Notes: generated from the sequence alone by a model not told the origin. 64,000 bases of DNA from an uncultured Clostridium sp. (GCA_900553945.1 USFR01000006.1:52948-116947); one strand, 5' to 3'. Numbered from the stretch's first letter, positions 1 to 17,214 are shown. Numbers and translations are program-made.

Positions 1-193
1 AATAACCTACTATTGCCATAAATAGCATTGGGAAAAATACCAATTTCAAATGTTCCCAAGTACTCTCATTTACTGCAGAAATAATCGAAAACACAACGCT
101 ATCAGGGAACCAATCATGTGTAAAATGTAATAATGTTCCAGCAATCCAGACAAAAATTATACTAACAATTTGAAAATTTTTAACTCTCTTCAT
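1..193 (-). CDS. Hypothetical membrane protein, N-terminal part only; the gene runs off the window start
   Basis: Minus-strand reading from ATG at 191-193 gives MKRVKNFQIVSIIFVWIAGTLLHFTHDWFPDSVVFSIISAVNESTWEHLKLVFFPMLFMAIVGY, a hydrophobic TM-like sequence. Confidence 0.4.
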   Translation of the reverse strand, partial: MKRVKNFQIVSIIFVWIAGTLLHFTHDWFPDSVVFSIISAVNESTWEHLKLVFFPMLFMAIVGY

Positions 194-347
194 AAAAAAC
201 CTCCATAACTAATTAATATTATAATAAGTTATAAAATATTATGAAAATTTTCTATCCATTCAAAATTTTTGCCTAACCTTGAAAAGCCGATTTTTTTTTG
301 CTATTATTTAAATAAATATTTAATAGCAGAATTGAGGAAAATTTGAT

Positions 348-1961
348 ATGACAATAAATGAAATAGAAAAAAGTTTACAAGAAAAATTTAATGATGAATT
401 CACAATAAAAGCATTTGCGAATTTTGCCTTTGAATTTCAAGAATGCTTTTCAGACATTCTATCCACTGAAGAATTAATACAAAGAATTAAAAAAAATGTT
501 AAAGGAAATATCATAGTAAAAGATGAATTTGAAAACAAACGATTAGATGGTCAATATAACAAGGATGGATATATATGTTTAAAAAAATCAGTAATCGAAA
601 ATGAAAGTTATACAAAATATCTTTTATTTCATGAAATGCTTCACGCAGTAACTTCAATAAGAGATGAAAATGGAAATGAAATTATGTCAGGCTTTTCATA
701 TATAGAACACAGCTATGGAAAAGGATTAAATGAAGCTATGACAGAATATCTAACTCAAATAAGAAATGAAAAATTCGAAAAAAACTCTAGCAACTTAATA
801 TCAGACTACAGAACAATAGTTGAACAACTCAGACGTCTTATTTTAATAATTGGGGATAAGAAAATAAAAGAATGCTATTTTCATAAGCCAATGGCATTTA
901 AAGATTTATTAAACGAAACTGGCATGAATTATGATGAAGTTGACTCAGCATTCAATGGCTTATGTGAGCAAGATTATGACGTTTATGCAATGGGACATGG
1001 GCAAAAGCTCAAAGAAAATAGTAATTATAAATTACATAAATATGCTGAAATACTATTTGAAAATTACTCAAAAGCAATTGGCGAAGTTAGAACATTAGAG
1101 GACTTTAAAAGAAAATATAAGGTTTTCGAAACATGCGTGGATGGTAATTTTGATGCTATTACAACAATGTATATACCCTACTATGGTCAAATGGGAAAAG
1201 ATATAAATTCTCTGTTAAATACAGGTATTCCATTTGAAAAAATAAAAGATACATTACAAATTCTAAAAATTAATTTAGATACATTGTCATCCGCATATGA
1301 TTTCTCAAAATGTTTTGTACCTGACAAAAACAAATCAGCTACTGAAATATATAAATATTATAAAAAAAATCCAAATAGATATACTGCATTTTTTAGTCAG
1401 AATTATGGCATGATATTTGACCATTTTAGTGAACTTACTGAATATACTTTAACGCCTAATGACAACACTTTATATGATTACTATCTATATCCGCTTAAAG
1501 GTTTATTAATACAAGATCATCCTGAAATAGATTATTCTGAAATCTCATGTAGAAGAATCAAAGATGAAAATTCAAAGGTTGATTTAGTTATTTTTAGTTC
1601 ATCTAATAATGAACAATACGGATATACTACAAATGGAGACAAAGCTATACAATATATTGATGACAAAGGAAATAAAATTTTGAGATTTAACGTAAGTAGT
1701 CAATACATTTTGAATTTAATATATCAAAAAGATGGCCAAGTAAATTTTCAATTCCAAGCTTCAAAAGATTTTCCACCTGAAAAATTCAAAGCTCTTATGG
1801 AAAATTTAAACTTTGAATCAAAATATTATTACAGTGACAAAGAAGATATAGAATATTGGTTACAAGAAAATAGCGATGATAAATTGTTGCAATCCAAATT
1901 AAATACCATATCAGAAAGAATTAACACTAGAAGGAAAGAAAGTTCTAAAACTTTGCAATAA
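348..1961 (+). CDS. Large hypothetical protein with an N-terminal HExxH zincin-like motif (HEMLH ... NEAMTEY, resembling ImmA/IrrE or SprT metallopeptidases)
   Basis: 537-aa ORF containing LLFHEMLHAV and a downstream GLNEAMTEYL Glu motif. The ~400-aa C-terminal region is unrecognised. An AT-rich promoter region precedes it. Confidence 0.55.
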   Translation: MTINEIEKSLQEKFNDEFTIKAFANFAFEFQECFSDILSTEELIQRIKKNVKGNIIVKDEFENKRLDGQYNKDGYICLKKSVIENESYTKYLLFHEMLHAVTSIRDENGNEIMSGFSYIEHSYGKGLNEAMTEYLTQIRNEKFEKNSSNLISDYRTIVEQLRRLILIIGDKKIKECYFHKPMAFKDLLNETGMNYDEVDSAFNGLCEQDYDVYAMGHGQKLKENSNYKLHKYAEILFENYSKAIGEVRTLEDFKRKYKVFETCVDGNFDAITTMYIPYYGQMGKDINSLLNTGIPFEKIKDTLQILKINLDTLSSAYDFSKCFVPDKNKSATEIYKYYKKNPNRYTAFFSQNYGMIFDHFSELTEYTLTPNDNTLYDYYLYPLKGLLIQDHPEIDYSEISCRRIKDENSKVDLVIFSSSNNEQYGYTTNGDKAIQYIDDKGNKILRFNVSSQYILNLIYQKDGQVNFQFQASKDFPPEKFKALMENLNFESKYYYSDKEDIEYWLQENSDDKLLQSKLNTISERINTRRKESSKTLQ

Positions 1962-1981
1962 CTATTAGTTTTCAACTCATA

Positions 1982-2020
1982 AAAAATCTCATGTTATTAA
2001 TTAAAACATGAGATTTTTTA
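1982..2020. terminator. Bidirectional rho-independent terminator between two convergent genes
   Basis: Hairpin aaaaatctcatgtt-attaattaa-aacatgagattttt with A/T runs on both sides. Confidence 0.6.
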
Positions 2021-2044
2021 TATATTCAAAGCAAATCTTTTATA

Positions 2045-3766
2045 TTAATTTAATTTTCCATAGTACATATCACTAAACATTCCGCCTTTGTCAATTAACT
2101 CATCAAATTTTCCTTCTTCTTCTATATGACCTTTGTTCAAAACAATTATTCTATCGCAATTTTTTAATGTAGTTAATCTATGTGCAATTGCAATAATCGT
2201 TGTATTATTTTCATCTTTCATTTTTTCTATTTCTGCTTGAATATGCTTTTCAGAGGTATTATCCAAAGCAGAAGTTGCTTCATCTAAAATTAATATTTTG
2301 GGCTTTCTCAAAAATATTCTAGCAATAGCTATTCTTTGTCTTTGACCACCAGATAAATTGTTTCCTCCTTCTGAAACCATAGTATCAAATTTTTCTGGTA
2401 AACTATTTATATAATCAAATATATATGCTCTTTTTGAAGCCTCTTCTACTTCATCTTTTGATACCTCTCTATCTATACCATACGTTATATTTTCATAAAT
2501 TGTTCCCGCTATTAAAAATGGACTTTGTGGCACTAATGCAATCAATTTAGAAATATCTTTTCTTGATAAATTATTTAAATTAATATTATCAATAATTATC
2601 GTACCCTTTGCTTTTTCCAGCTTACATATAGACTTTATCAAAGATGATTTACCGCAACCTGATGGCCCAGCAATACCAAGATAAGTTCCTTTATTTATAT
2701 CAATATTAAAATTATCAAGAATTACTTTATCTTTACTTTCTGGATAAGAAAACGTAATATTTTCCATATTAATCATTTCATCTGTTTCTTTATTTTCTGA
2801 TTTCACACTTATAGGAAAATAAGAAAAATCATTTTCTATTTCTGTCATTTTGAAGAAATCTGTTGCTAAAACAGTACATTCAGACACTTCATCGAAAATT
2901 CTATGTAATTCTTCTAATGGCTTTAATAATTGATTAAAACACAAATATGCTGTTAGAACACTACCTACTGAGATTATATTCTTAGTTGCTAGATATGTAG
3001 ATACACCAATAACTAAAACAGTAAATACTGCTTGATTAATAAATTTTAAACAATCATATACAGCCATTGCTTTATGATGTTTCATTTCCTTTGCTCGTAA
3101 AAATTCTGATTTATTTTCAAATCTATTTGTTTCAAATTCTAAGCTATCACATATTCTTATTACTTCAATACCATTTATTAATTCAACAATAGTTCCGTCC
3201 ATTTCAGATTTACTATTTAAAAGTTCAACTCTAATTCCCTTCTGACTTTTAATCTGTTTCAAAACTATAAAAACTCCAATTGGGATTACTAACATCATAG
3301 GTAAAGCTAATGCTATTGGTAACGTTATAAAAATAGTAATAATTGCTGCTATACTATTGAATATAGCTGGAGCAAAATCCATAAACAACAATTTTTCCAA
3401 TTTTATTGTTCCATCAAGACATCTATTTAACCTTCCATGAATATTTCCAGTCATATTTTTTCTGAAATATGATAATGGAGCCATTAAAAGAGATTTTATA
3501 ACAATTCCTCTTGCTTTTTTTTCTGTCCTAGTTGCTGTATCCTCAACTAAAACTCTTCTTACAATTTTTATTATTTCATTAACTACATTGACTATTAGTA
3601 TAAAAATAAGAAATGGTATTACTTTTTCAAACGAAATTGAATCCTTAGATAAAATATCATCTGTTAACCATCCTATAGCTTTAGGAGTCATCTGTGCTAA
3701 TATTGCTGAAATTATCATTATCATAATAATTATTATAAATCTTATTTTCTGCTTTTTATCTAACAA
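2045..3766 (-). CDS. ABC transporter, fused permease/ATP-binding exporter (MsbA/LmrA type)
   Basis: N-terminal six-TM region; Walker A GPSGCGKSS, ABC signature LSGGQRQR, Walker B ILILDEAT. Confidence 0.85.
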   Translation of the reverse strand: MLDKKQKIRFIIIIMIMIISAILAQMTPKAIGWLTDDILSKDSISFEKVIPFLIFILIVNVVNEIIKIVRRVLVEDTATRTEKKARGIVIKSLLMAPLSYFRKNMTGNIHGRLNRCLDGTIKLEKLLFMDFAPAIFNSIAAIITIFITLPIALALPMMLVIPIGVFIVLKQIKSQKGIRVELLNSKSEMDGTIVELINGIEVIRICDSLEFETNRFENKSEFLRAKEMKHHKAMAVYDCLKFINQAVFTVLVIGVSTYLATKNIISVGSVLTAYLCFNQLLKPLEELHRIFDEVSECTVLATDFFKMTEIENDFSYFPISVKSENKETDEMINMENITFSYPESKDKVILDNFNIDINKGTYLGIAGPSGCGKSSLIKSICKLEKAKGTIIIDNINLNNLSRKDISKLIALVPQSPFLIAGTIYENITYGIDREVSKDEVEEASKRAYIFDYINSLPEKFDTMVSEGGNNLSGGQRQRIAIARIFLRKPKILILDEATSALDNTSEKHIQAEIEKMKDENNTTIIAIAHRLTTLKNCDRIIVLNKGHIEEEGKFDELIDKGGMFSDMYYGKLN

Positions 3767-3978
3767 TTTATATATTTTCTTTAAAACATTCGATAAATTA
3801 TTTTTTTCATATTTACTCCTTTTAATTTAAATTACATTATATATTATAACATAAAACTATCTAAAACACCAATTTATCCGAATGCTATATTTTTTTACAT
3901 TTCATGTCATCAAGCTCTATTAATTACTTTAATATCTAACAATTTATTTCGTATACCACTTGATATATTTTATCAATT

Positions 3979-5343
3979 TTAGTTTATATCATCATTTTGT
4001 ATAACTTTTTTCTCTAATTTTTGAGCAAGTTTTTCTAGTTCTTCATCCCCTGTTTCATCAGCAAACTTTCTTGCCATAGTTTTATTTTTAGAAACTAATT
4101 TTTTTATAGTTAAATCATTCGCTTTATCATTTGCTAATCGAAGATTTCTGTCACTACTTACAAGAGCATCCTTTATTTTTTGAAGATGATCTATTGACTT
4201 ATCTATTTCTTCTATTGCCTCATTAAATTTTCTTGATGCTAACATATAATTTCTGCTAAATGCATCTTTAAATTTATTCATATTATCTTCGAAATTTGAA
4301 ATATCAATATTGGTATTTTTCATTTCAATCATTTGTTTTTTATATTGCAATGAATTCATTGATGCAGTTCGTAGCAAAGTGATAATAGGTATAAATGATT
4401 GTGGACGAATTACATACATTTTTTCATATCTATGTGATACATCAGTAATTCCAGCATTATAAAGTTCATTATCTTTTTCTAATAAAGAAACTAACACTGC
4501 ATATTCGCAATTCTTTTCTTTTCTATCTTTATCAAGTTCTTTGAAAAAATCCTCATTTTTATGTTTAGTAGCTGTTTCATCATTTTCGTTTTTCATTTCG
4601 AACATAATAGAAACTATTTCAACACCGTCATCATCATAATCTCTAAATATAAAATCACCTTTAGATCCTGTTTTAGCATCATTATCTTTTTCAAAATATG
4701 CATTTGAGAACAAAGGTCTTAATCTATTAAACTCAACATTGCAATGTTGTTCTAAGGTTTCTCCCACCATTTTTGTTGATAATGATGTTTTTAAGTCTTT
4801 ATAATATTCTATCATTTCATCTTTTTGTTTTAATTGATTATCATAACTTAATATAAGATTTTTTTCGTTTATTTCTTGCTCTTTTTTATTAAGATTAATC
4901 TGATTCTTCAAAGACTCTATGTCTTTATCTTTTTCATTTATTGCATCTTTAATAGCCATTTGATCTTTTGATTTCTGAACAATTAAATCAGATTGTAATT
5001 TTGTATTTTCATTTGTTAATTCATTTATTTTATCATTTAATTTTTTCTCTACTTCATTTCGAGTAGACATCTCTATATTTCTTTTCTCTTTTTCACTTTC
5101 TTGCAATTTGTTTTGAGCTGTTATTAATTCTAGTTTTAATGAATTAATTTCTTCTTGCATTTTCTTTTCTGTATTAACTTCTGCAAGTTTTACTGCATTT
5201 TCTTTTTCAGAATTAAATTGCTTAATTCTTATATCTAGTTCCTTCTCAAACTCATGATTTTTTATTTGCTTAACTATTGATTCATAATCTGTTTCATTTA
5301 TCGTAAATGCTTTTCCACAATGTGGACATTTAATTTCATTCAT
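3979..5343 (-). CDS. DUF2130/RmuC-like protein: N-terminal Zn-ribbon, long coiled coil, C-terminal PD-(D/E)xK-like nuclease fold
   Basis: CPHCGKAF zinc ribbon at the N-terminus. About 250 aa of heptad-like E/K/Q/L-rich sequence. C-terminal GDFIFRDYDDDGVEIVSIMFEMKNE ... EYAVLVS matches a D...ExK restriction-endonuclease-like motif. Confidence 0.6.
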   Translation of the reverse strand: MNEIKCPHCGKAFTINETDYESIVKQIKNHEFEKELDIRIKQFNSEKENAVKLAEVNTEKKMQEEINSLKLELITAQNKLQESEKEKRNIEMSTRNEVEKKLNDKINELTNENTKLQSDLIVQKSKDQMAIKDAINEKDKDIESLKNQINLNKKEQEINEKNLILSYDNQLKQKDEMIEYYKDLKTSLSTKMVGETLEQHCNVEFNRLRPLFSNAYFEKDNDAKTGSKGDFIFRDYDDDGVEIVSIMFEMKNENDETATKHKNEDFFKELDKDRKEKNCEYAVLVSLLEKDNELYNAGITDVSHRYEKMYVIRPQSFIPIITLLRTASMNSLQYKKQMIEMKNTNIDISNFEDNMNKFKDAFSRNYMLASRKFNEAIEEIDKSIDHLQKIKDALVSSDRNLRLANDKANDLTIKKLVSKNKTMARKFADETGDEELEKLAQKLEKKVIQNDDIN

Positions 5344-5395
5344 TATATATTTTCCTTTCTTTAATTATTAAAGTAAAATTTATAATATAATTGTA

Positions 5396-5620
5396 TCATT
5401 TATTCAGTAATTTATCATATATTAATTTTGTGTTTTCATTTAAATGTATTTTTTCATCAAAAACATCTACACATTTTGGTTTGCAAAAATTTTTAAATTC
5501 AGAAATAGCTAAATCTATATTATTTGCATTAACTTTATCTTCAAATATTTTAATTGCTGTTTTCATATATCCTCTTACAGCACATCCTGCCATTGCTTTA
5601 AAATAAGATTTTTCTGGCAA
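5396..5620 (-). pseudogene. Probable gene remnant: a 74-aa ORF with a TTG start, and out-of-frame fragments upstream (5621-5728)
   Basis: No ATG start and no Shine-Dalgarno. The adjacent 108 bp holds short frames in other phases (...APHGVFRSNKIIITNPRVVTDEMAMDF*), suggesting a decayed gene between DUF2130 and the RhuM pair. Confidence 0.3.
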
Positions 5621-5728
5621 ATTCGATTTATATTAAAAATCCATGGCCATCTCATCTGTAACAACTCTAGGATTTGTTATAATAATTTTATTACTTCTAA
5701 ATACTCCGTGCGGAGCTTAAGTGCTTTC

Positions 5729-5953
5729 TCAATCTATTATTTCAGCATCATCTGGAATAGCAACATCATATATTGTATCACCACGCACTAACCATCTTAG
5801 TATGTTATCTTCTGTACTAAAGTTAAAACCGCCCATTTTTTGTGGGTCATGAACATTAGGATTCCAATTATTAGCAATATTTACTTTTCCTATCTTATAC
5901 TCAAAATCCGAGGCTCCAGATTTCGTTTTAAACATTACCTTTAAATACTTCAT
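5729..5953 (-). CDS. Small hypothetical protein (74 aa) overlapping the 3' end of the RhuM-family gene
   Basis: Protein-like composition (GGFNFSTEDNILRWLVRGDTIYDVAIPDDAEIID). The 26-nt overlap with the upstream gene suggests translational coupling. Confidence 0.45.
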   Translation of the reverse strand: MKYLKVMFKTKSGASDFEYKIGKVNIANNWNPNVHDPQKMGGFNFSTEDNILRWLVRGDTIYDVAIPDDAEIID

Positions 5954-6863
5954 TTGCTTGTTTATGTGAATTTTTTCCTTTTCCTTCTAAAACTTCATAA
6001 TGGAAAACTTTTAGGGCATTTTCTACTTCATTTTTCCAATCTTCCATATACATTGTTATGTTTCTCTCTGCATTATTTTCAGCAATATCCAAAAATAAGT
6101 TTACTAAATTATTTAAATTTTTAATTTCTTGTTCACTTAAATAGTTCTTGGCAATAATTACATCAGATTTTAAAATTTTCCCATCAGGTGAATTTTCCCA
6201 GGTAGTAAGTCCAATATTTTCTTTTTTAGAATTCACTCTTTTATAAACTATTTCAGCAGCAATGTTTCCAGTAATTGCATAATGAAATTTATTTTGAATT
6301 GTTTTATAAAAAGTTATTGCAGTATCACTATTTTTATCATAATCAATAGAACATTCAGCAAATATATCAGTAATTTTTTGATAAAACATTCTCTCGCTTG
6401 TACGAATTAATTTAATTCTTTCGAGTAATCTTTTAAAATACTCTTGATCAGATTTCTTTGCTTTTAAAAATCTTTCATCATTTAAAGCAAAACCTTGAAC
6501 CATATAATCTTTAATTATTTTATTTGCCCAAGTTCTAAATTTAATTGCTTTTTTAGAGTTAACTCGAAAACCTATTGAAATGATCATATCAAGATTATAA
6601 TATTTTGTATTATAATCTTGTTTGCCATTGTTACCCACATGTTCCATTTTGGAACATGTGCTTTTTTCTTCAAGTTCTTCGTCTTCATAAATATTATTTA
6701 TATGTTTCGTAATTGCTGGTCGTTTAACATTAAAAAGTGCGGCTAATGCTTTTGTATTTAACCAAACATCTTCATTTTCTAATAGTACTTCTACTTTTGT
6801 ATTACCTTCTTCATCATTATAAAATAAAATATTTTTCTCATTTCCAATTAATTTTTCTTTCAA
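5928..6863 (-). CDS. RhuM/DinD-family virulence-associated protein (N-terminal Bro-N/KilA-N-like DNA-binding region)
   Basis: NTKALAALFNVKRPAITKHINNIY ... DMIISIGFRVNSKKAIKFRTWANKIIKDYMVQGFALNDERF is characteristic of the Virulence_RhuM family. Confidence 0.7.
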   Translation of the reverse strand: MKEKLIGNEKNILFYNDEEGNTKVEVLLENEDVWLNTKALAALFNVKRPAITKHINNIYEDEELEEKSTCSKMEHVGNNGKQDYNTKYYNLDMIISIGFRVNSKKAIKFRTWANKIIKDYMVQGFALNDERFLKAKKSDQEYFKRLLERIKLIRTSERMFYQKITDIFAECSIDYDKNSDTAITFYKTIQNKFHYAITGNIAAEIVYKRVNSKKENIGLTTWENSPDGKILKSDVIIAKNYLSEQEIKNLNNLVNLFLDIAENNAERNITMYMEDWKNEVENALKVFHYEVLEGKGKNSHKQANEVFKGNV

Positions 6864-6995
6864 ATTAACATCTCCTAATCCAAATATAATAAATTCTTAT
6901 CTAATTAATATAATACTATTTTTACGAACATTTGTATTGTATCATGGATATACTTGAATTTCAATATTTTTACATGCAATAATTATATTAAAAAA

Positions 6996-7030
6996 AGTGC
7001 ATCCAGATTATTACACTGGATTGCACTTTT
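6996..7030 (-). terminator. Terminator hairpin just downstream of the displaced secA 3' fragment; probably the ancestral secA terminator
   Basis: agtgcatccag-attattaca-ctggattgcact followed by a T-run. It sits immediately after the remnant stop codon at 7047-7049. Confidence 0.5.
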
Positions 7031-7046
7031 TTATTATATTATATAA

Positions 7047-7136
7047 TTACGCATTTTTTCCACAACAGTTTTTATACTTTTTTCCACTTCCACAAGAAGA
7101 CTTTATTTGTGTATTATCAATACTATAAAATACTAT
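7047..7136 (-). pseudogene. Displaced secA 3'-end remnant (encodes ...[17 protein letters not shown]), the distal att-repeat of the integrated island
   Basis: Minus-strand translation of 7047-7100 reproduces the SecA C-terminal zinc-finger tail. It is 41/48 nt identical to the genuine secA terminus at 14458-14505. Confidence 0.7.
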
Positions 7137-7572
7137 CTATACTAATAATATCACGGATTATAGCCATTTATATTTATTGTATTATTAGTATTTATTTTGT
7201 ATATGTTTTATTATTTTTTGCAAACAAAATGCAAACAATGTTTACATTCGATTTTAAAATTATAATAAAAATGCCTAGATTGCAACGTACTTAACATACG
7301 CTTAGCTTGTAGCTACATTGTCTAGGTCTTACTAAAAATATTTTACTATATCGAAACTTGTATGTCAAACATTTTTGCTAAAAAATATTAAAGGTAAAGA
7401 CCTAAATCTCTACCTTTTTTACCGTTGGTTATTTGGCAGGTGTGCCAAATCCTGCATCTCTTTTGACCTTTTAAAGGTGTGTGGATGGCACTATTGTCCA
7501 CTTCAAATAACCTAATTATATTGTACTTTTATTATACAACTTTTATTCATTTTTGTCTAGCATTTTTTAGAT

Positions 7573-7956
7573 TTATTTTTCCATATGATTTTTCCGTCTA
7601 TTTCTTATAGTTTGATTCCAAGTTCTTTTATTTAATTTCATTAATGTTATTATTGAGTTTTTATTATGCTCATCATCTTGTCCTAATGCTAACTTTATAA
7701 CGACTCTACCATTCTTTCCTATATCATCAATTTCTTTTAAATATATCATTGTATCTTCATGTCTATTATCTTCAACTATATAGTCTGGATTTTCAATTAT
7801 ACTTTTAATATATGGTCTTAACTGTTTATATTCTTCTTCGTGGAATAATAGTATGTGTTCATATAGTCGTTCATCTGTTAAAATAACTTCTTCAGTTATT
7901 AACTTATCTTTATATATTCCTAATTTTTCTTTATCTAAATTTGTTATATATTGCAA
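7573..7956 (-). CDS. Hypothetical 127-aa island cargo protein, possibly a toxin/nuclease-like domain
   Basis: ORF with a basic C-terminus (RNRRKNHMEK). First gene inside the island boundary. No confident family assignment. Confidence 0.4.
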   Translation of the reverse strand: MQYITNLDKEKLGIYKDKLITEEVILTDERLYEHILLFHEEEYKQLRPYIKSIIENPDYIVEDNRHEDTMIYLKEIDDIGKNGRVVIKLALGQDDEHNKNSIITLMKLNKRTWNQTIRNRRKNHMEK

Positions 7957-7983
7957 TTTATTACCTTCTTTTTATTATAATAT

Positions 7984-8430
7984 TTATCTTACATATTTTG
8001 TATTATTAAAAATATCTAAAGAATATATTTTGTTTTCTTCAAAATATTTGATAAACTGGATGCTTGTATCATATCCTCTTAATTCATTTTCTGTCATGTT
8101 TTTAACATCTTTGACATTTAACCATTTTACATCCAATATCTCATCAGTATCAAATTTAATATCTTCTTCTAATATATCAGCAGTAAATCTTACCATTACT
8201 CGTGTTTCTCCATCTTCTCCATCAACAGAACATATCGGTAATACCCCTGTGAGTTTTACTTTACAGCCCGTTTCTTCATAAGTTTCTCTTACTGCTGCAT
8301 CTGTTATTTTTTCTAATTCATCTACATGCCCTGCTGGAAAATTCCATTGTCCATAACATTTCTTTTTTGCTTCTTTTACCATTAAAATTTTATTATCTCT
8401 TACTATTATACAACCTGCTATAACTACCAT
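7984..8430 (-). CDS. NUDIX hydrolase
   Basis: Nudix box GHVDELEKITDAAVRETYEETG (GX5EX7REUXEEXGU). Confidence 0.8.
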   Translation of the reverse strand: MVVIAGCIIVRDNKILMVKEAKKKCYGQWNFPAGHVDELEKITDAAVRETYEETGCKVKLTGVLPICSVDGEDGETRVMVRFTADILEEDIKFDTDEILDVKWLNVKDVKNMTENELRGYDTSIQFIKYFEENKIYSLDIFNNTKYVR

Positions 8431-8444
8431 TCTATCTCTCCTAA

Positions 8445-9248
8445 CTATAAAATTACTTCTTCTAAATCATTTGGAACATAAACATTACCTAAAAAGAATT
8501 TCTTTGCTTCTTCTATATATGATTTTTTTCTGTTTTTTACATCATTGTCTATTGTATGCCATAAAATCAAATTTTTAGCTTTCATCATTTCCATCTTTTC
8601 TGCCACATCCTTAACTACTGAATGATTTTTTTCACGGGCTTTAAAAATAGGTTCTTCTTTTTCTAAACAAAATGCTTCATGTAGTATCCAATCAAAATTT
8701 TTTATTCTATCACATATCTTTTCAGAGCAAGGAACATCTCCTAAAAATGCTATATTCTTTCCATTATTTAATATCGTTTTAAATCCATATTGAATACATT
8801 CATTAGAGTGTAAATCTATTACATCTATATCATATCCTATAATAGAAAACTTTTTATAATCTTTACAAAAGTTATATATTACTAACTCTTTATATAAGTC
8901 TATATGTACTTTATGAAATGTAGCTGACATGAAAGTATCTATTATTTCTTTAATTTCATCATCACAATATATATTTAATTTTCCATTATATCTTTTCATT
9001 CTATGTTGTTGCATTATATATCTTAATAGTGGAATAATGCCTAATAAATGGTCTATATGTTTATGTGAGATAAAAATATCATGTATTTTATCAATGTCTA
9101 TATTTTTTGACTTTAATTGATTTAATATTTGATTACCACTACCTGTATCTACCAACATATACTTATCATCATTTTCTAGTAAAAAACATGTACTATAACA
9201 ATTTATTGATATTCCTGCCCCAGTACCTAAAACTATAATTTTTTCCAT
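8445..9248 (-). CDS. MBL-fold metallo-hydrolase (RNase Z / beta-lactamase superfamily)
   Basis: Glycine-rich N-terminus LGTGAG, HxHxDH motif (SHKHIDH), and a downstream His/Asp-rich region. Confidence 0.75.
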   Translation of the reverse strand: MEKIIVLGTGAGISINCYSTCFLLENDDKYMLVDTGSGNQILNQLKSKNIDIDKIHDIFISHKHIDHLLGIIPLLRYIMQQHRMKRYNGKLNIYCDDEIKEIIDTFMSATFHKVHIDLYKELVIYNFCKDYKKFSIIGYDIDVIDLHSNECIQYGFKTILNNGKNIAFLGDVPCSEKICDRIKNFDWILHEAFCLEKEEPIFKAREKNHSVVKDVAEKMEMMKAKNLILWHTIDNDVKNRKKSYIEEAKKFFLGNVYVPNDLEEVIL

Positions 9249-9261
9249 CTATAAATCCTTT

Positions 9262-9789
9262 CTATTTATTCAAATAATATTCTAATATATTTCTATCCCT
9301 TAATGCTATAAATTTTGTGTGATATACAGACTCGTATTTTGATGCAATTAAATTATCAAAACATTCTGTAATTAACTTTAATCCATTTTCAGGAGTTTCC
9401 CATAATAATTTAGCACCTTCTTCTTTTTCTTTTTGAGTTACATTCAGTTGTTTTGTATCTTTTATAACTTTTCCTACAAATACATAAGAAATTTGTTTAA
9501 AATTATCAAATGTTTTATATTCTTCAGTTGTTCCTAAACATTCTATAATTTCTACTTCGCATCCTGTTTCTTCTAGCACTTCTCTTTTAAATGCTTCTTC
9601 TGGTTTTTCTTCTCCTTCTAATCCTCCACCAGGTAATTTATATTCATTTTTATTACTCTTATTAAAAATTGCAATTTTACCATCTTCTCTTATCACAATT
9701 CCTCTTGCACCTAATCGCAATCTTGGATTGTCCATTTCAATCGGCTGTTTTCCTATATCTTTATCTGTTATTTTACATATTAAATTCAT
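9262..9789 (-). CDS. NUDIX hydrolase (second copy)
   Basis: Nudix box GGGLEGEEKPEEAFKREVLEETG. Confidence 0.8.
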   Translation of the reverse strand: MNLICKITDKDIGKQPIEMDNPRLRLGARGIVIREDGKIAIFNKSNKNEYKLPGGGLEGEEKPEEAFKREVLEETGCEVEIIECLGTTEEYKTFDNFKQISYVFVGKVIKDTKQLNVTQKEKEEGAKLLWETPENGLKLITECFDNLIASKYESVYHTKFIALRDRNILEYYLNK

Positions 9790-9922
9790 ATTTTTTATAT
9801 TCTCCTCTTTTGGGATATTTTTAAGGAATTATATCATACTTTACTTTATTTGTCTCAATTTTATAAAAATTTTATATTTTTCTTATATTTTAAAGAGCCA
9901 GTAATTATACTAGCTCTCTAAT

Positions 9923-11200
9923 CTAATAAGCAATTTCATATTTAATAATATCTTCAATCGTTTTAGAACTCATTAAATCGTCAAATACATTACTTACATC
10001 TTTCTTGTTTTCATCAGTACTTGTTATATAAAAGTTTTCAGTAGTTTCTATATATTTGTGTCCCAAAATATCAGCAACATCTCTTATTTCTATACCATTT
10101 CTTAAATTAATTGTTGCATAACTTCCTCTTAAATCATAAAATCTACAATTTTTAATACCAAGTTCTTTATGAATTATCTTAAATGGATAATTTAAAATAT
10201 TTCTGCCAACATATTTACCATTAGGTCTTGTAAATACCATATCTGCTTTGTTTATTTGAAGGATATTACTTTCATTCTGCACAATTCGTTGTTCTACTAC
10301 TTTTCCATATTTATTGAGTACATCTTCAAAATGATAAGTGCAATATTCTTTACCATATAACTTTTTCATATACTGTTGTTTCTTTTTATAATTCGTTAGA
10401 GCATTATATACAGTTTCACACATATTAATTTGTCTTGTGCCTTGTTTAGTTTTAGTAGTGCCAATATACCATCTTCCTTTATCATCTTTTGGCTTATCAT
10501 ATACTGTATGCCTAACTTTTATAACTCTATTTTCGAAATCTATATCGTCCCAAGTTAAGCTACAAACCTCTCCTGTTCTCATTCCAGTAAAACAACTTGT
10601 AATAAATGCACAAGTAAAAGTATCATCATCTTTAAATCTATCTAAAATTAAATCAATTTCATTTTTATTATATAAATGTTTCTTAAAAGCCTTTTCATCT
10701 TCTATTTTTGGTAGTTTTAAAGTCAATGTTGGATTATATCTTATAAATCCATATACATCTGTTGCTATTCTAAAACAGTTTTTCAAAACTTTTAATATAT
10801 TTTTATAATATGATTTTTTATAGTTATATTTGTTGCATAAATCAACGATATATGAATTTAGCTTTACACTTGTTAATGAACTTAATCTATACTTGCCTAG
10901 TTCTGGTTTTAAATATTTATCCATTATTGTTTTATAAGTTCTTCTTGTATTATATTTCAAGTTTATTTCACAATAATTTTCATACCAGTAATCTAAATAA
11001 TCACTAAATGAAATTGCTTTTTCTTTAAAACTCAAACCAGTGTTTAAATATTCTGTATAAGCAATATTTCCTGCTTTAATTGCTTCATCTTTTGTTTCAA
11101 ACCCAGATTTATTTATAAATTTTCTTTTGCCATCTACTTTAGCTACTTCAAATTTATATTGATAATATTTGCCTCTTTTCTGAATTGTAACATTACCCAT
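9923..11200 (-). CDS. Tyrosine-type site-specific recombinase/integrase (int1)
   Basis: 425 aa. N-terminal SAM-like region. C-terminal catalytic region with R...HxxR...Y context (DLRGSYATINLRNG ... HKYIETTENFY). Paralog of the 12941-14212 integrase. Confidence 0.85.
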   Translation of the reverse strand: MGNVTIQKRGKYYQYKFEVAKVDGKRKFINKSGFETKDEAIKAGNIAYTEYLNTGLSFKEKAISFSDYLDYWYENYCEINLKYNTRRTYKTIMDKYLKPELGKYRLSSLTSVKLNSYIVDLCNKYNYKKSYYKNILKVLKNCFRIATDVYGFIRYNPTLTLKLPKIEDEKAFKKHLYNKNEIDLILDRFKDDDTFTCAFITSCFTGMRTGEVCSLTWDDIDFENRVIKVRHTVYDKPKDDKGRWYIGTTKTKQGTRQINMCETVYNALTNYKKKQQYMKKLYGKEYCTYHFEDVLNKYGKVVEQRIVQNESNILQINKADMVFTRPNGKYVGRNILNYPFKIIHKELGIKNCRFYDLRGSYATINLRNGIEIRDVADILGHKYIETTENFYITSTDENKKDVSNVFDDLMSSKTIEDIIKYEIAY

Positions 11201-11206
11201 AACTTA

Positions 11207-11452
11207 TTATCTCTCTATATCTTCACATATCGATATTTTTCTTATATTATCAATATCTGATAAATCATTTCCTTCATTTTCTTTTAAAAAATCTTCTAAA
11301 GTAGATTTAAGAATCTTTATACTTTTCAATTTTACTGCTTTAAGTTTTCCTTTTTTAACTAATTCATATATATAATTAGGGCTTGAATGTAATATCTTTG
11401 CAGCTTCTTGAGCTGAATATACTATTTGTTCTTCTCTTATTTTTTCTGACAT
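11207..11452 (-). CDS. Excisionase/helix-turn-helix DNA-binding protein (Xis-like)
   Basis: 81 aa containing AQEAAKILHSSPNYIYELVKKGKLKAVKL, an HTH_17/MerR-like excisionase motif. Located immediately upstream of int1. Confidence 0.65.
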   Translation of the reverse strand: MSEKIREEQIVYSAQEAAKILHSSPNYIYELVKKGKLKAVKLKSIKILKSTLEDFLKENEGNDLSDIDNIRKISICEDIER

Positions 11453-11646
11453 TATAGTTCCATCTCCTTTTCTTTATTGTGTTCTCGTTCCCTTTCTTTA
11501 GCTTCAATTTCATCTAAAATTTCTTTTGGAACTTTTTTTATATATTTTTCATACTTTTTAACTTGATTTTGCATATTTCTTAACTTTACATCAGTTTCAA
11601 AATCCTGATCTACAATTTTATTCTTTAATTGTCTATTTTCATTCAT
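11452..11646 (-). CDS. Small coiled-coil hypothetical protein (64 aa); may be the out-of-frame continuation of the truncated AAA_25 gene
   Basis: Charged K/E-rich ORF directly downstream of the truncated 11718-12314 gene. Confidence 0.3.
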   Translation of the reverse strand: MNENRQLKNKIVDQDFETDVKLRNMQNQVKKYEKYIKKVPKEILDEIEAKEREREHNKEKEMEL

Positions 11647-11717
11647 TAGATCTTTATTATTTGATTTCTGAAAATTTACTCTTTCTTCTAGTTCTTGAAT
11701 ATATTCATTATAAGAAT

Positions 11718-12314
11718 TTACTTTTGATGTGTTCCAGAAATTTTATTAAATACATCACTATCATCTTGTTTTCTTAAATGGTGCACTAATATAATCGCAA
11801 TTTTATTTTTATCAGCAAATGCTTTTAATAATGAAATTTCTCCATAGTCTGCTGAATAATTAATATCATTACTTTGCTTTCTTATTTTTTGTAAAGTGTC
11901 TATAACAACTAATCTTATATTTGAATATTGCTTTAATGCTTGTTCTAATTGCATTACCAATCCATTTGTAATTTTGTTTGACTCTATTGCTATATGAAAA
12001 TTAGAACCTATTTCATCAGTTAACCTAAATAATCTTTTTTGCAATCTTTGATGGGTATCCTCTAACGCTAAATACAAAACATCACATTGATTAGTTTTTA
12101 AATTCCATAATTCTTCGCCTTTTGAAACTTTAATACATAAATCAAGCATTAACCAACTTTTACCTACTTTAGGTGCTCCACAAAATATATGAAGTCCTAT
12201 AGGTAATATTTCTTCGATTATAAATTCTGTTTCGCCTAAAGATGTATATAGTAAATTGTCTGCATTAATAATTTTTAAATCTTCCAAGTTTTCCTCCTTT
12301 CTAGCAAGTAGCAT
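11718..12314 (-). pseudogene. AAA_25/RepA-like replication ATPase (primase-helicase family), apparently truncated at the C-terminus
   Basis: Walker A GAPKVGKS, Walker B-like VVIDTL and a VHHLRK sensor motif. The ORF stops after ISGTHQK, where family members normally continue for about 100+ more residues. Confidence 0.55.
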
Positions 12315-12940
12315 TACATCAAAAAAGGCTTCGCTTTTTTAACTCAAACGAAACCTTATATCAAATTTATACATTAAAATAAATCCCTATATAAGCCATT
12401 AAATGATACAGAAGTTCCGTTTTCTCTTACTGAAAAATTCTTGTGCTTACTTGCATAAAAATTTTTCTTGACTTTTCTATAAAAAACAGAAAAGCCATAA
12501 GAGATATTAGAATATCAATTTAATTTACAGCTAACAAAATTCCTTATACAAGGCATATTTTAATAAGTCCATTAAATATACAATTTTGGACATATCAAAA
12601 AATATTTTGTCTACTGCAAATTAAATATGATATTCTGTAGCACTTACGACTTCTTATTACATCTATCTATTTGTTGGACCAAATTACATTATAACTATAA
12701 AAACCAACATAGGCCTACGAAACTTAAAAGGGCCTCATATCATTTCTGGCTTCCGATTAGTAGGGAAAGTATTTTCTTGCGAAGTACTTTTTGGATTATT
12801 TCTAATCAACCACTATTTTATCATTAAGTTACATAGTGGCTCAACCTACAACAGGGAAATATCTATATTTAATTTTTCAGTTGTATTCCTAATGAATACA
12901 TTTATTTTATATCACCATTTTTATGGTTTGTCAATCGTTT

Positions 12941-14212
12941 TTACAGAAATTTACAAATCTTCTCAAATTTATTTGCTGTCTCACTTTCCATCTTTTCTGT
13001 TACTCTCACATATATATTATAAGTAGTATCAATATTTCTATGTCCTAGCCTTTTTGAAACTGCTTTTATATCCGCACCTGATTCAATAAGTCTTGTAGCA
13101 TGAGTATCTCTAAAGTCGTGAAATCTACAAGGAATACCTAATTCATAATGTATAACTTTGAATGGATATTTACAACTATCAGTCCCCTCATATACTCCAT
13201 TTTTCTTTACAAAAACAAAATCTACTTCTTCCAACGCAACATCAATTTCAGAATATGCATTTATTATTTTTGTTTCTGTTTTATTATTATATGGATTAAC
13301 AACACTCTTTTTATAATGTTTCATATATGTATCGCCATAATTAATTTTATTTTCTTCTTGCTCTTTTTTATAAGTTTTAAGAGCATTTAATAAAGTATCT
13401 CCTATTGGTATAGTTCTATAGCTTGTTTCTGTTTTACAAGTTCCAAAATACCATACTGTAGTTGAATTACCACTTATATGTCTTTTCTTTGTACCACCAT
13501 TTTGATTCTTTTTTAGTATGTTTTTATTTACACTAATTGTTTTATTTCTAAAATCTATATCATTCCAAGTAAGTGCAAATACTTCTGCAATTCTTAATCC
13601 TGTACAATATGCAGTTAAAAAAGCATAATATATACAATGATTATTTTTAAACCTATCTAAAATAAGATTTATTTCTTCATTTGTAAATATATGAGCTGGA
13701 TCATTTGGTGGAACATCATATTTTGGAAGTTTCAATCCTATTGATGGATTTGTCTTTATTAAGTCATTTTCATAAGCATAAGTAAATGAGCCTTTTACAA
13801 CTTTTTTAATATTATTTAGAAAATTCTTACTAAATGATTTTTTGATGTAAATACTATTTATAAACTCTTGTAAAGTTGACCTAGTAATTTGTGATATTTT
13901 ATAAAAACCAATATTAGGCTTTATATGATTTTTTACAATACTACTATATGCTTCAATTGTATGATATTTTAAGTTTATATAGCAATAATTTTGTATCCAA
14001 TAATCTAACAAGTCTGCATAGCTCATATCACTTGGCTCAAAACCGTGTCCTGTATTAATATAATTATTATATGCAATTATCCCCTCTCTTTCTGCTTCTG
14101 CTTTTGTTTTAAATCCTGATTTGTTTGCAAACTTTCTTTTACCATCAACCTTTGCAATTTCAAATTTGTATTGATAGTATTTTCCTCTCTTTTGAATTGT
14201 TACATTCGACAT
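12941..14212 (-). CDS. Tyrosine-type site-specific recombinase/integrase (int2), adjacent to the secA attachment site
   Basis: 423 aa. N-terminus is near-identical in pattern to int1 (MSNVTIQKRGKYYQYKFEIAKVDGKRKF). C-terminal HDFRDTHATRL ... GHRNIDTTYNIY catalytic region. Confidence 0.85.
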   Translation of the reverse strand: MSNVTIQKRGKYYQYKFEIAKVDGKRKFANKSGFKTKAEAEREGIIAYNNYINTGHGFEPSDMSYADLLDYWIQNYCYINLKYHTIEAYSSIVKNHIKPNIGFYKISQITRSTLQEFINSIYIKKSFSKNFLNNIKKVVKGSFTYAYENDLIKTNPSIGLKLPKYDVPPNDPAHIFTNEEINLILDRFKNNHCIYYAFLTAYCTGLRIAEVFALTWNDIDFRNKTISVNKNILKKNQNGGTKKRHISGNSTTVWYFGTCKTETSYRTIPIGDTLLNALKTYKKEQEENKINYGDTYMKHYKKSVVNPYNNKTETKIINAYSEIDVALEEVDFVFVKKNGVYEGTDSCKYPFKVIHYELGIPCRFHDFRDTHATRLIESGADIKAVSKRLGHRNIDTTYNIYVRVTEKMESETANKFEKICKFL

Positions 14213-14457
14213 TTTTCATTTCTCCTTTCCTTTTTCGAATGTAAACATTATAATTTAATTCAAAAATAAAAATGCTAACACGAATGCTAACATTTTTATT
14301 TATTATATTCACTTTGTTTGCAGGTTTAAACTTCTTTATTTTCAAGCATTCCAGAGATTTTGTCCACTTATATGAAAACATTTTGCAAACAAAATGTAAA
14401 CAATTTGGCATGTTTTCATATTTATGTTTACTTATCTAATCTCTGAAAGTATTGATA

Positions 14458-17214
14458 TTATGCGTTTTTTCCACAACAGTTCTTGTATTTCTTTCCACTT
14501 CCACATGGGCACAAGTCATTTCTACCTACCTTAGGTCCTTCATTAACTATTGGTGCTTTCACTTTTTTCTTTTCTTCTTGAGCAAGCTCAGGATTAATCA
14601 TTCCATCAATATCTTCTCTACCTTCACCAGTAATTTTAACTGTGCTTCTTCTTTCATATCCTTCACGTTTCTTTACGCACATTAAAATTTTAGCTACCTC
14701 TAATTTGATGCTATTGATCATTTCTTCAAACATATCTGAACCTTCAATTTGATATTGAATAACAGGATCTTTTTGTCCATAAGCACGAAGTCCAATACCA
14801 TTTTTTAATTCATCCATGCTATCGATATGATCCATCCATTTTGAATCAACAACTTTTAATAAAACAATTCTTTGAAGCTCTTTGAATGGTTCTTCTCCGA
14901 TTTCTTCTTTTTTGGCTTCATATATTGCTAATGCTTTTTCTTGCATTTCAGCTAGTACTTCATCAGCATCAACTTTATCTTTCTTTAATGAATCTAATTC
15001 TTTTATGTTTAATCCGTTTTGTACTTCAATTAAGAAAGCAGCTGTATCAGGATTTTTCTCTGAAAGCTCAGCTCTATAAGTATCAACTATTAAAGCACAA
15101 GCTTCTCTTATCATATTTTTAATTGATTCTGTAACATCTTCTCCATCAAGAACTTCTCTTCTTTGTGTATAAATAATCTCTCTTTGAGTATTCATAACAT
15201 CATCATAGCTTAATACATGTTTTCTTATTGAGAAGTTTCTACTCTCAACTTTCTTTTGAGCAGATTCAACAGCTTTTGAAATTGGCTTAAATTGAATTGG
15301 CATATTTTCATCAGCTTTTAATGCATTATATACAGCAGTAACTTTATCACCACCAAATATTTTCATTAAATCATCATCAAGTCCAATATAGAATATTGAT
15401 TCTCCTGGATCTCCTTGACGACCACTACGTCCACGTAACTGGTTATCAATTCTTCTTGATTCATGTCTTTCAGTACCAATGATTTTCAAACCACCAGCAG
15501 CAATAACTTTTTCTTTTTCTTCTTTTATTTGTTTTTTGAATTTCGTTTCTAATTCGTTAAATGTTTTTCTAGCTTCAATAACTTTTTCATCTTTTGTTTC
15601 ATTATGAGCAGAAGCTTGATTTATAAGATCGTTAGTATATCCAGCTCTCTTCATTTCTTGCTTAGCCATATATTCAGTGTTTCCACCAAGCATAATATCA
15701 GTACCACGACCAGCCATGTTAGTAGCAATTGTAACAGCACCATATTTACCAGCTTGAGCAATTATTTCAGCTTCTTTTTCATGGAACTTAGCATTCAACA
15801 CTTCATGAGGAATTCCAGCTTTTTTAAGTAATTTACTTAATCTTTCTGATTTATCAATTGAAACTGTACCAACCAATACCGGTTGTCCTTTTTCATGAGA
15901 TTTTTTAATATCCTCAACAACAGCATTAAATTTAACTTTTTCATTTTTATATATAATATCGTTTTTATCATCTCTTGCAACTGGTAAGTTTGTAGGAATA
16001 CAAACAACATCCAAATTATAAATCTCTCTGAATTCTTCTTCTTCTGTTTTAGCTGTACCAGTCATACCAGATAATTTGTTGTACATTCTAAAGTAATTTT
16101 GGAATGTGATATTTGCTAAAGTTTTTTGTTCATCAGCAATCTTTACACCTTCTTTAGCTTCAATTGCTTGATGTAAACCAGCATTATATCTTCTTCCATA
16201 CATAATTCTACCTGTGAACTCATCAACAATTAAAACTTCTCCATCTTTAACGATGTAATCTTTATCTCTCTTCATAACGCCATGTGCTTTTAAAGCTTGG
16301 TTAACATTATGAACTATATCTGTATTATCTAAATCATTGAAGTTTTCAACTTCAAAGAATTCTTCAGCCTTCTTAATACCTTTTTGTGTCAATGTAGCTG
16401 TTTTGGCTTTTAAGTCTACAATGTAATCATATTTTTCATTATCTTCTAATTGAGCTTCATCTTTAATATCTTCTTCAATAATAACTTTTGCTTGTAATCT
16501 TTTTACAAAATCATCAGCTCTTTTGTATAAATCAGATGATTTATTTGCTCTACCAGATATGATAAGTGGTGTTCTAGCCTCATCAATCAAGATACTATCG
16601 ATCTCATCAACAATTGCATATTCTAATCCTCTTTGAACCATATCTTCTTTGTGAATAACCATGTTATCTCTCAAATAATCGAATCCATATTCATTATTTG
16701 TTCCATATGTTATATCACATGCATATGCTTTTTGTTTATCTTGTTGATTCATTCTTGAAATATTTAATCCAACAGATAAACCTAAGAATTTATATAATTT
16801 ACCCATCCACTCACTATCTCTCTTAGCTAGGTAATCATTAACTGTAATTAAATGAACACCTTTTCCTGTAAGTGCATTTAAGTATATTGGTAATGAAGCA
16901 ACTAATGTTTTTCCTTCACCAGTTTTCATTTCAGCAATTCTACCTTGATGTAATATAATACCACCAACTAATTGCACATCATAATGTCTCAATTCTAAAA
17001 CTCTTTTTGATGCCTCTCTTACAACTGCAAATGCTTCTGGTAAGATATCATCAAGAGTTTTGCCTTCAGCTAATTGTTTCTTAAAATAATCTTTTTTAGC
17101 TCTTAGCTCTGCATCTGTTAACTTTTCCATTTCAGGTTCTAAACTATTAATTTTGTTTACTATAGGTTGAACTCTTTTTACTTCTTTTTCACTATAAGAT
17201 TTAAATAAACCCAT
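14458..17214 (-). CDS. secA: Preprotein translocase subunit SecA
   Basis: 918 aa with DEAD-like motor motifs and the C-terminal zinc-binding tail [17 protein letters not shown]. Confidence 0.97.

Follow-up and report, generated by a model that had tools for sequence, protein, structure and literature searches.

Streptococcal integrative mobilizable elements (IMEs) insert by means of tyrosine integrases at the 3' ends of rpsI, rpmG, rplL, rpmE and guaA (PMC5357655; PMC5704250). At such 3' ends of conserved genes, the tandem accretion of elements followed by the deletion of modules has been documented (PMC5357655; PMC5704250). As far as it is related in these two papers, accretion and cis-mobilisation also occur at the 3' end of fda in Streptococcus thermophilus, which is occupied by ICESt1, ICESt3 and cis-mobilizable elements (CIMEs) (via PMC5357655; PMC5704250). 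The locus analysed here is a stretch of 64,000 nucleotides from an uncultured Clostridium sp. (USFR01000006.1:52948-116947), referred to at its full length as the window, in which a genomic island occupies positions 7095-14457 immediately downstream of secA. The island is very probably a decayed IME that was placed by a tyrosine integrase into the SEC-C codons at the 3' end of secA.

The secA elements share several features with the streptococcal IMEs. They are small (2.6-11 kb, compared with 5-18 kb), combine a tyrosine integrase and an excisionase (Xis) with a MobV-type relaxase but no mating-pore genes, occupy the 3' end of a housekeeping gene with a gene-preserving direct repeat, and form tandem accretions with decayed partners. 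They differ in the target, as secA is missing from the target list and the texts of PMC5357655 and PMC5704250; in the hosts, which are uncultured low-GC gut Clostridia and Bacilli represented by metagenome-assembled genomes (MAGs); and in their two related integrases, one per end, the window copy having also lost its relaxase. Tandem accretion at one att site, with deletions leading to composite or decayed elements that keep attL and attR, is also a likeness to ICESt1, ICESt3 and the CIMEs in the form in which these are summarised there. Unlike the CIMEs so described, the window island still has Xis and two integrases that appear intact, and no conjugation genes are found at the locus.

A related arrangement is known from islands and phages at tRNA and tmRNA genes (P4-type integrases), in which attP holds the 3' end of the conserved gene, the integrase adjoins the rebuilt gene, and the displaced fragment marks the far end. 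The secA island follows the same attP/3'-end logic. Unlike these islands, its target is a protein-coding SEC-C motif, so that the copy carried by the element has to remain in frame and synonymous; in some hosts this copy alters the last residues of the protein. Tn554 carries adjacent genes for two tyrosine recombinases, TnpA and TnpB, which are both required, and it uses a specific chromosomal site. The secA island likewise has two tyrosine recombinase genes and a specific site; unlike in Tn554, the genes lie at opposite ends and relatives with a single integrase exist.

The secA gene (14458-17214) encodes a protein of 918 amino acids with an intact SEC-C zinc-finger tail, according to the open reading frame (ORF) and to the Pfam SecA and SEC-C domains found on an identical protein. 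This gene, its two tail copies, the displaced terminator, the two arms, the leader, the RNA and all genes of the island lie on the minus strand. The attL core (14458-14505) consists of the last 15 codons of secA and the stop codon, and the attR core (7047-7094) is a second copy of these codons. A repeat search of the window returned the pair as a direct repeat of 49 nt with 88% identity (7046-7094 and 14457-14505). The tail duplication proposed by an earlier sequence-only reading is therefore real, although 42 of the 48 coding nucleotides are identical and not 41. When a degenerate 41-nt version of the repeat was searched as a pattern, it matched the 64-kb window at exactly two places (0.00 expected, 100 shuffles), and no third copy was detected there by a nucleotide profile of the core or by the pattern. 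The distal copy is preceded by only 15 open codons (...NTQIKSS-CGSG...) and hence does not belong to another gene, which removes a doubt raised earlier. Downstream of it, at about 6991-7032, lies a strong hairpin with a U-tract (-19.1 kcal/mol, z = -5.55), as had been noticed before; this is the original secA terminator, now 7.4 kb away from its gene.

An alternative is that the second tail arose by a local duplication or a vertically inherited rearrangement, the intervening genes being ordinary chromosome. It would fit the presence of the island in all contigs sampled from this strain that run beyond secA. The base composition would also be compatible, since the GC content of the island (25.4%, vs 30.6% in secA) is only modestly different from that of its neighbours, and the DNA on the left of the distal copy has just as high an AT content. 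However, the six mismatches between the tail copies are all synonymous and at third codon positions, so that the same protein sequence is encoded; therefore both copies evolved as coding SecA tails, unlike a decaying local duplicate. An assembly artefact is excluded, because independent metagenome contigs with 99.99-100% identity to the window contain the island whenever they reach beyond secA. Several other contigs end (L005, L014) or start (L047, L050, L053, L066) within a few bases of the secA-tail core, which is the expected behaviour of an assembler at a polymorphic or repeated att site.

Two pairs of occupied and empty sites also argue against a local duplication. The pattern of an empty site, made up of attL sequence from its secA side and attR sequence from its host side, was scanned against the metagenome collection and matched one contig, L098 (OIYG01000331.1). 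In the last 817 nt of this contig, a secA 3' end (96.2% identical to window 15118-14457) is joined straight to the equivalent of window 7094-6892 (99.5%), with the terminator included and with a tail of the distal type at all six variable positions. The three-way alignment of L098 with the two window copies matches attL to the left of TGTGGAAGTGGAAA and attR from TGTGGAAGTGGAAA onwards; within the attL core this segment lies at 14492-14505. The distal copy is therefore the original tail of the host, the tail fused to secA was supplied by the element, and the crossover took place within the 14 nt of TGTGGAAGTGGAAA. The copy ending at 14458, formerly called the genuine one, does terminate secA, but its part 3' of the crossover is element-borne. 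The empty site that had been predicted, with secA followed directly by the terminator and the RhuM gene, was thus found as far as the secA-terminator junction; L098 stops short of RhuM and is chimeric upstream. At about 12583-12660, an 18-nt word common to both sequences (ATGATAAGAGAAGCTTGT, peptide MIREAC) links secA to an N-carbamoylputrescine-amidase-like gene of a higher-GC organism, and nothing upstream of this word resembles the window. An artefactual jump over the island, which would have to combine a join at the 14-mer with a chance reproduction of the distal variants, is unlikely.

The second pair is independent and clean, as it has no chimera problem. In the 195-kb contig L103, secA is followed directly by an integrase and its island. 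The 313-kb contig L102 equals L103 with an extra 9.3-kb element between secA and the core; the junctions are at TGTGGAAGTGG, and from the core onwards the two contigs are 99.87% identical over the following 10 kb. The newcomer carries an int2-type integrase, TnpV and other genes, and the earlier tail now lies on its distal side. Strand exchange occurs inside TGTGGAAGTGG(AAA), which represents the CGSG codons of the SecA zinc finger, and the attachment core comprises the last ~12-16 codons of secA. Exact-protein look-ups (SecA, RhuM and the DUF1980 neighbour) returned no empty site of the same strain; the contigs reached in this way were 99.99-100% identical to the window and carried the island, stopped before the junction or ended at it.

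The integrase survey was a scan with one genome per species. It revealed 78 loci with relatives of int2, the integrase gene next to secA, at 45-95% identity. Linkage was counted only where 330 nt or more of upstream DNA was available for an int2-type gene, and a secA tail was found 206-299 nt upstream in all 66 of these genes. The upstream tails belong to full-length secA genes in 52 cases, to fragments in 12 (mostly in tandem arrays), and are cut by contig ends in four. The expectation that int2 homologues would also sit beside secA is thus borne out in distantly related hosts; together with the two pairs, this linkage also upholds the proposal of a site-specific integration that rebuilds the 3' end of secA. 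The host SecA proteins share 42-80% identity with that of the window, and the records are labelled as MAGs of Clostridia, Bacilli, Erysipelotrichaceae, Tenericutes or Mollicutes from the gut of human, rabbit, sheep, deer and mouse. One integrase family therefore occupies the same secA site in many uncultured low-GC gut Firmicutes. The TGTGGAAGTGG block is kept in nearly every copy of the secA tail that was examined. In locus L027, for example, the DNA from int2 through int1 is 88.6-94% identical to the window, whereas the SecA protein is 72% identical. The element DNA is far more alike between hosts than the hosts themselves, which indicates by comparison of these sequences that the backbone is spreading horizontally. 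Such linkage at 42-80% SecA identity, with element DNA up to 94% identical between hosts, leaves the duplication of ordinary chromosome with hardly any credibility.

The element-borne tails are also variable at their ends. By their 3' ends the tails fall into types (KNA, RNQ or QCCGK before the stop codon), which co-vary with the subtype of the adjacent P arm, and not with the host. In L100, the element-borne tail (9718-9770) ends in CCGRNQ before the stop codon, whereas the displaced host copy (13377-13420) ends in CCGK; to judge from this alignment, integration can alter the last residues of the essential SecA. Moreover, L104 and L105 contain arrays of three integrases separated by secA-tail fragments (e.g. 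L105 840-4117), one of which is annotated as a SEC-C ORF of 32 amino acids; these are Bacilli-type MAGs. Elements accumulate in tandem at the secA site, and these arrays represent multi-element accretion.

The gene int2 (12941-14212) encodes a tyrosine integrase of 423 amino acids, which belongs to the secA-tail-linked family and contains the Pfam Phage_integrase domain and a SAM-like domain. The second integrase gene, int1 (9923-11200), encodes 425 amino acids, and next to it lies the excisionase gene xis (11207-11452) of the HTH_17 family (Pfam HTH_17, 6.2e-12; NCBIfam TIGR01764, 29.3 bits with a cut-off of 28.8). The catalytic domain of tyrosine recombinases (PF00589) was found in Int2 (3.6e-28) and in Int1 (1.7e-21). 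Both proteins score above the cut-off for Phage_int_SAM_3, and both reach 16-21 bits for Arm-DNA-bind_4, under its cut-off of 22.3. A pattern search located the motifs TGLR (204-207), K260, HDFR (365-368), LGH (389-391) and NIYV (399-402) in Int2, and TGMR, KT...R, YDLR, LGH and NFYI in Int1; these matches are consistent with the catalytic residues R...K...H/Y-x-x-R...H...Y. The two integrases are 43% identical overall, while their first ~57 residues, a putative arm-binding region, are nearly identical; their genes share a DNA repeat family of 158 nt with 75% identity. An Rfam match to CRISPR-DR7 inside int2 (E = 0.099) was dismissed as chance.

The two ends of the island resemble the arms of an attP site. 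The P arm (14213-14457), from the stop codon of secA to the start of int2, contains three direct TGTTT[AGT]C repeats with 11-bp spacing at about 14374-14402 (+56, +67 and +78 after the stop codon), further copies near +192, and copies in inverted orientation near +41 and +137. The P' arm (7095-7272) has the same motif at -143 and -132 before the distal tail and inverted at -151 (about 7220-7245). This right-end homology, 180-230 nt inside the distal tail, is common to the window and to two mini-elements, L020 (int2 and a peptidase gene, 2.6 kb) and L087 (int2 and ToxN). These arm repeats keep fixed positions in about 30 loci of the closest clade as well as in the window. With this conservation, the TGTTTRC repeats of the two arms are probably arm-type binding sites for the N-terminal domain that is common to Int2 and Int1.

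Between the integrases, a non-coding leader of 626 nt (12315-12940), with an inverted repeat at 12518-12540 and 12604-12626, precedes a truncated gene for a RepA-like AAA_25 ATPase (11718-12314; Pfam AAA_25, 1.8e-26), of which the first ~195 of 361 codons remain. It is followed by a remnant of 64 codons (11452-11646) that matches the C-terminus of a 332-amino-acid homologue in L088. Comparison with L088 2019-3526 places a deletion of 1,508 bp at the junction 11729/11730, by which the shortened RepA-like gene has become fused to the last 64 codons of the relaxase gene. Every relative has about 1.5 kb more at this point, so the deletion is private to the window. The full 361-codon AAA_25 gene is present in L088, L023, L024, L027, L034, L037-L040, L044, L058 and L090, where it is followed by a gene of 330-357 codons whose last 64 codons correspond to the small window ORF. 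The homologue in L088 is a MobV relaxase (Mob_Pre, 1.6e-55; NCBIfam MobV, 171 bits with a cut-off of 100), and a full MobV is encoded in L088, L023 and L044; the window has no relaxase of its own. The deletion thus removed half of the RepA-like gene, the intergenic region in which oriT is expected, and the MobV relaxase domain. The remnant of a replication ATPase reported by the sequence-only reading is indeed a truncated AAA_25 gene, and the same event that cut it also took the relaxase. The rest of the gene content given there (two integrases, an excisionase and hydrolases) stands as well, with the nuclease gene PBECR2, a skipping-rope RNA and the MobV stump to be added.

Since one 1.5-kb deletion cut both the RepA-like gene and the MobV relaxase, the window copy is regarded as a decayed IME. 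It has its own int2, int1 and xis and is bounded by attL and attR, and searches with Pfam and NCBIfam detected no domains of a type IV secretion system or coupling protein in the ORFs of the island or its relatives. The intact relatives with int2, the RepA-like ATPase, MobV, Xis and int1 are, by their gene content, integrative mobilizable elements. A CIME is defined by the retention of attL and attR and the loss of both integration and transfer genes (PMC5704250). The window island is not a strict CIME, as the transfer genes are gone but both integrases and xis are full-length.

The integrase, the excisionase and the primase/helicase-like AAA_25 ATPase might also be those of a prophage remnant or a phage satellite similar to phage-inducible chromosomal islands, which would not be mobilised by conjugation. 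PHROGs matches for the integrase, excisionase, AAA_25, NUDIX and PBECR2 proteins point in this direction, as does the abortive-infection-type cargo of some relatives, e.g. ToxN. However, searches of the window and the intact relatives with Pfam, PHROGs and NCBIfam gave no repressor and no genes for packaging, capsid, tail or lysis, the intact relatives encode a MobV relaxase, and no close integrase homologue was found in IMG/VR or GenBank phages (best 35.6%, GenBank phages). A phage origin is thus very improbable. The family is assigned to the IMEs because MobV, Xis and the integrases are present, phage and type IV secretion genes are missing, and no close integrase turned up in the two viral collections.

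In this mechanism, the circular element brings an in-frame copy of the remaining secA tail with its stop codon. Once it has integrated, element DNA completes secA, here with the same protein sequence, and the tail and terminator of the host come to lie at the far end of the island. The backbone would be transferred via MobV, mobilised by a helper conjugative element; indirect evidence for mobilisation from host to host comes from the near-identical backbones in hosts with 72% identical SecA. Missing from the window copy are the relaxase, half of the RepA-like gene and probably the oriT. Excision is probably still possible, because the two integrase genes, xis, both att cores and the two arms all look intact, and we infer that the copy can no longer transfer on its own. 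The loss of autonomous transfer fits the presence of the island in every contig of this strain beyond secA.

The order of the complete backbone is P arm, int2, variable slot, leader, RepA, MobV, Xis, int1, variable slot and P' arm. This two-integrase layout is found again in at least 12 other genomes and is not peculiar to the window. Across at least 12 species, the backbone is collinear, 82-95% identical and without any internal att site. L023 has its distal tail ~260 nt after int1, with the same P' arm. A simple intact tandem in the window was rejected, as neither the pattern nor the profile found an internal att copy between int2 and the rep-mob-xis-int1 part. The favoured interpretation of these comparisons is that the backbone arose by accretion of two secA-specific elements, lost its internal att site and now moves as a unit. 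Separate origins of int2 and of the remainder are suggested by four types of evidence. The mini-elements L020 and L087 contain int2 only, with both arms and both att cores. L089, L094, L100 and L103 have a single int1-like or chimeric integrase directly after secA. A module junction lies just after the int2 stop codon: L087 and L088 diverge about 34-38 nt past the stop, and L023, L037 and L034 have insertions or replacements at about 12934-12952. Finally, chimeras with an int2-like N-half and an int1-like C-half (L083 7313-9056; L089 10001-11272; L094 10001-11272) appear to be products of recombination between the paralogues that deleted the rep-mob-xis module.

Against the accretion stands the lack of any internal att relic, and the two-integrase layout might be the original design. 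The backbone would then be a single element that needs two secA-specific tyrosine recombinases. Either Int2, expressed by read-through from secA, would serve integration or maintenance and Xis-Int1 would serve excision, or both would act in a heteromeric synaptic complex. The collinearity across species and the usually intact state of both ORFs agree with such a design, as do the contiguity of xis-int1, attP and int2 in the circular form and the nearly identical N-terminal arm-binding regions. A terminator scan detected no terminator between secA and int2, which also agrees with it. The mini-elements, which have both arms and cores with int2 alone, and the single-integrase elements directly after secA do not agree with it. 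The variable insertions after int2 likewise speak against it, and the chimeras show that one integrase gene can be lost. In addition, accretion followed by module loss is a documented route (PMC5357655). An obligatory pair of recombinases is thus considered unlikely. A bolder version, to which still less probability is given, regards the two-integrase backbone as a functional design in which the displaced terminator puts int2 and the co-oriented genes under secA read-through; all genes of the island are on the same strand as secA. If it were true, the maintenance and excision control of the element would be coupled to secA expression, with integration and excision split between Int2 and Xis-Int1. 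The accretion of two elements is still preferred.

The cargo operon at 7984-9789 encodes, according to Pfam, two NUDIX proteins (9262-9789 and 7984-8430) and between them a protein of the metallo-beta-lactamase (MBL) fold (8445-9248). The NUDIX and MBL proteins score under every curated family cut-off of NCBIfam. The MBL protein aligns over its full length with cyc_nuc_deg_phdiest (39.6 bits, cut-off 400) and at its N-terminus with RNase_Z (107, cut-off 293). It falls outside the Apyc1/cyclic-nucleotide phosphodiesterase family by these scores, and a precomputed Pfam label (Anti-Pycsar_Apyc1) exists. Its match to PDB chain 7T28 ('Putative metal-dependent hydrolase'), which we take to be an Apyc1 structure, reaches only E = 0.006 and covers the N-terminus. 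The protein is thus a putative phosphodiesterase of the RNase Z/Apyc1-like group. PADLOC identified no known defence system, only the candidate families PDC-S07 (NUDIX) and PDC-S05 (the flanking RhuM).

Next to this operon lies a gene for a PBECR2 (Barnase/EndoU/ColicinE5-D/RelE-like) nuclease (7573-7956; Pfam, 1e-09), followed by a feature at 7390-7511 that consists of a skipping-rope RNA (7428-7511; Rfam RF02924) and a terminator-like hairpin (7390-7417, terminator scan). The RNA scored 69.1 bits, with a gathering score of 36.7 (E = 1.8e-15). The same pair occurs in L077, where the skipping-rope RNA (16917-17000, 66 bits) lies directly downstream of PBECR2 (16487-16885); this PBECR2 is 93% identical to that of the window and is also located at the right end of the island. 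The discoverers of the skipping-rope RNA reported an association with a nearby protein family (PMC5737381). The combination at the island end suggests a type III-like toxin-antitoxin or abortive-infection module. In relatives, the slot at the right arm holds ToxN (Pfam, 3e-37) or DUF3800 proteins (L087 979-1506; L083 12072-12599; L089 15374-16036; L100 12423-13073; L102/L103 13917-14447), the DUF3800 assignment in L089 being by eye only. DUF3800 proteins have known associated RNA motifs; in the loci that were scanned, no such motif scored high enough to pass the Rfam gathering cut-off. The cargo is most likely related to genetic conflict (defence or anti-defence), and among the steps of this analysis its role has the least support.

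Beyond the distal tail, the flanking genes are RhuM (5928-6863), two split ORFs (5729-5953 and 5396-5620) and DUF2130 (3979-5343). The two short split ORFs together resemble one 207-amino-acid protein inside the L044 island, and RhuM with a protein of this type recurs downstream of secA-linked integrases in L058, L072, L091 and L096. The GC content of window 1-7046 is 25.5%, as AT-rich as the island. This region is possibly what remains of an older island, no att copy of which survives. The gene prfB was considered as the native downstream neighbour and rejected, as L089 is the only locus in which it comes after the island and the 64-kb window does not contain it.

Several points weigh against the interpretation of the island as a decayed IME at secA. 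The first empty site depends on 817 nt, as the chimeric join in L098 lies ~660 nt upstream of the junction. Neither an excised circle nor an attP junction came to light, the corresponding pattern having no match in IMG/VR. All contigs of this strain that reach beyond secA contain the island, so its current mobility is unproven. Moreover, the arm-type sites are deduced from conservation only, and the function of the cargo, which lies below the RNase Z and cyclic-nucleotide phosphodiesterase cut-offs, is a guess.

Full-text literature searches returned no report of the secA 3' end as an att site. A secA site was also not found in the streptococcal IME survey, the IME review, the ICEscreen and Faecalibacterium mobilome papers, or the TIGER/Islander paper; the secA mentions in the literature were unrelated (SecA2, a gene neighbour in an integrative and conjugative element of group B Streptococcus, and reference lists). 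The mechanism is classical, and what is new is the secA target, the breadth of hosts and the recurrent two-integrase backbone. The DNA for the SEC-C zinc finger of secA thus joins the short list of protein-coding landing pads for integrative elements. The secA site is a hotspot for tandem islands with defence-type and nucleotide-hydrolase cargo. The integrases are candidates for practical use, with a ready-made attB in organisms without genetic tools. An element can also rewrite the last residues of an essential protein, as in L100, without apparent harm. As the core TGTGGAAGTGG is kept across hosts labelled as Clostridia and as Bacilli/Tenericutes, one integrase family can colonise distant uncultured gut Firmicutes.

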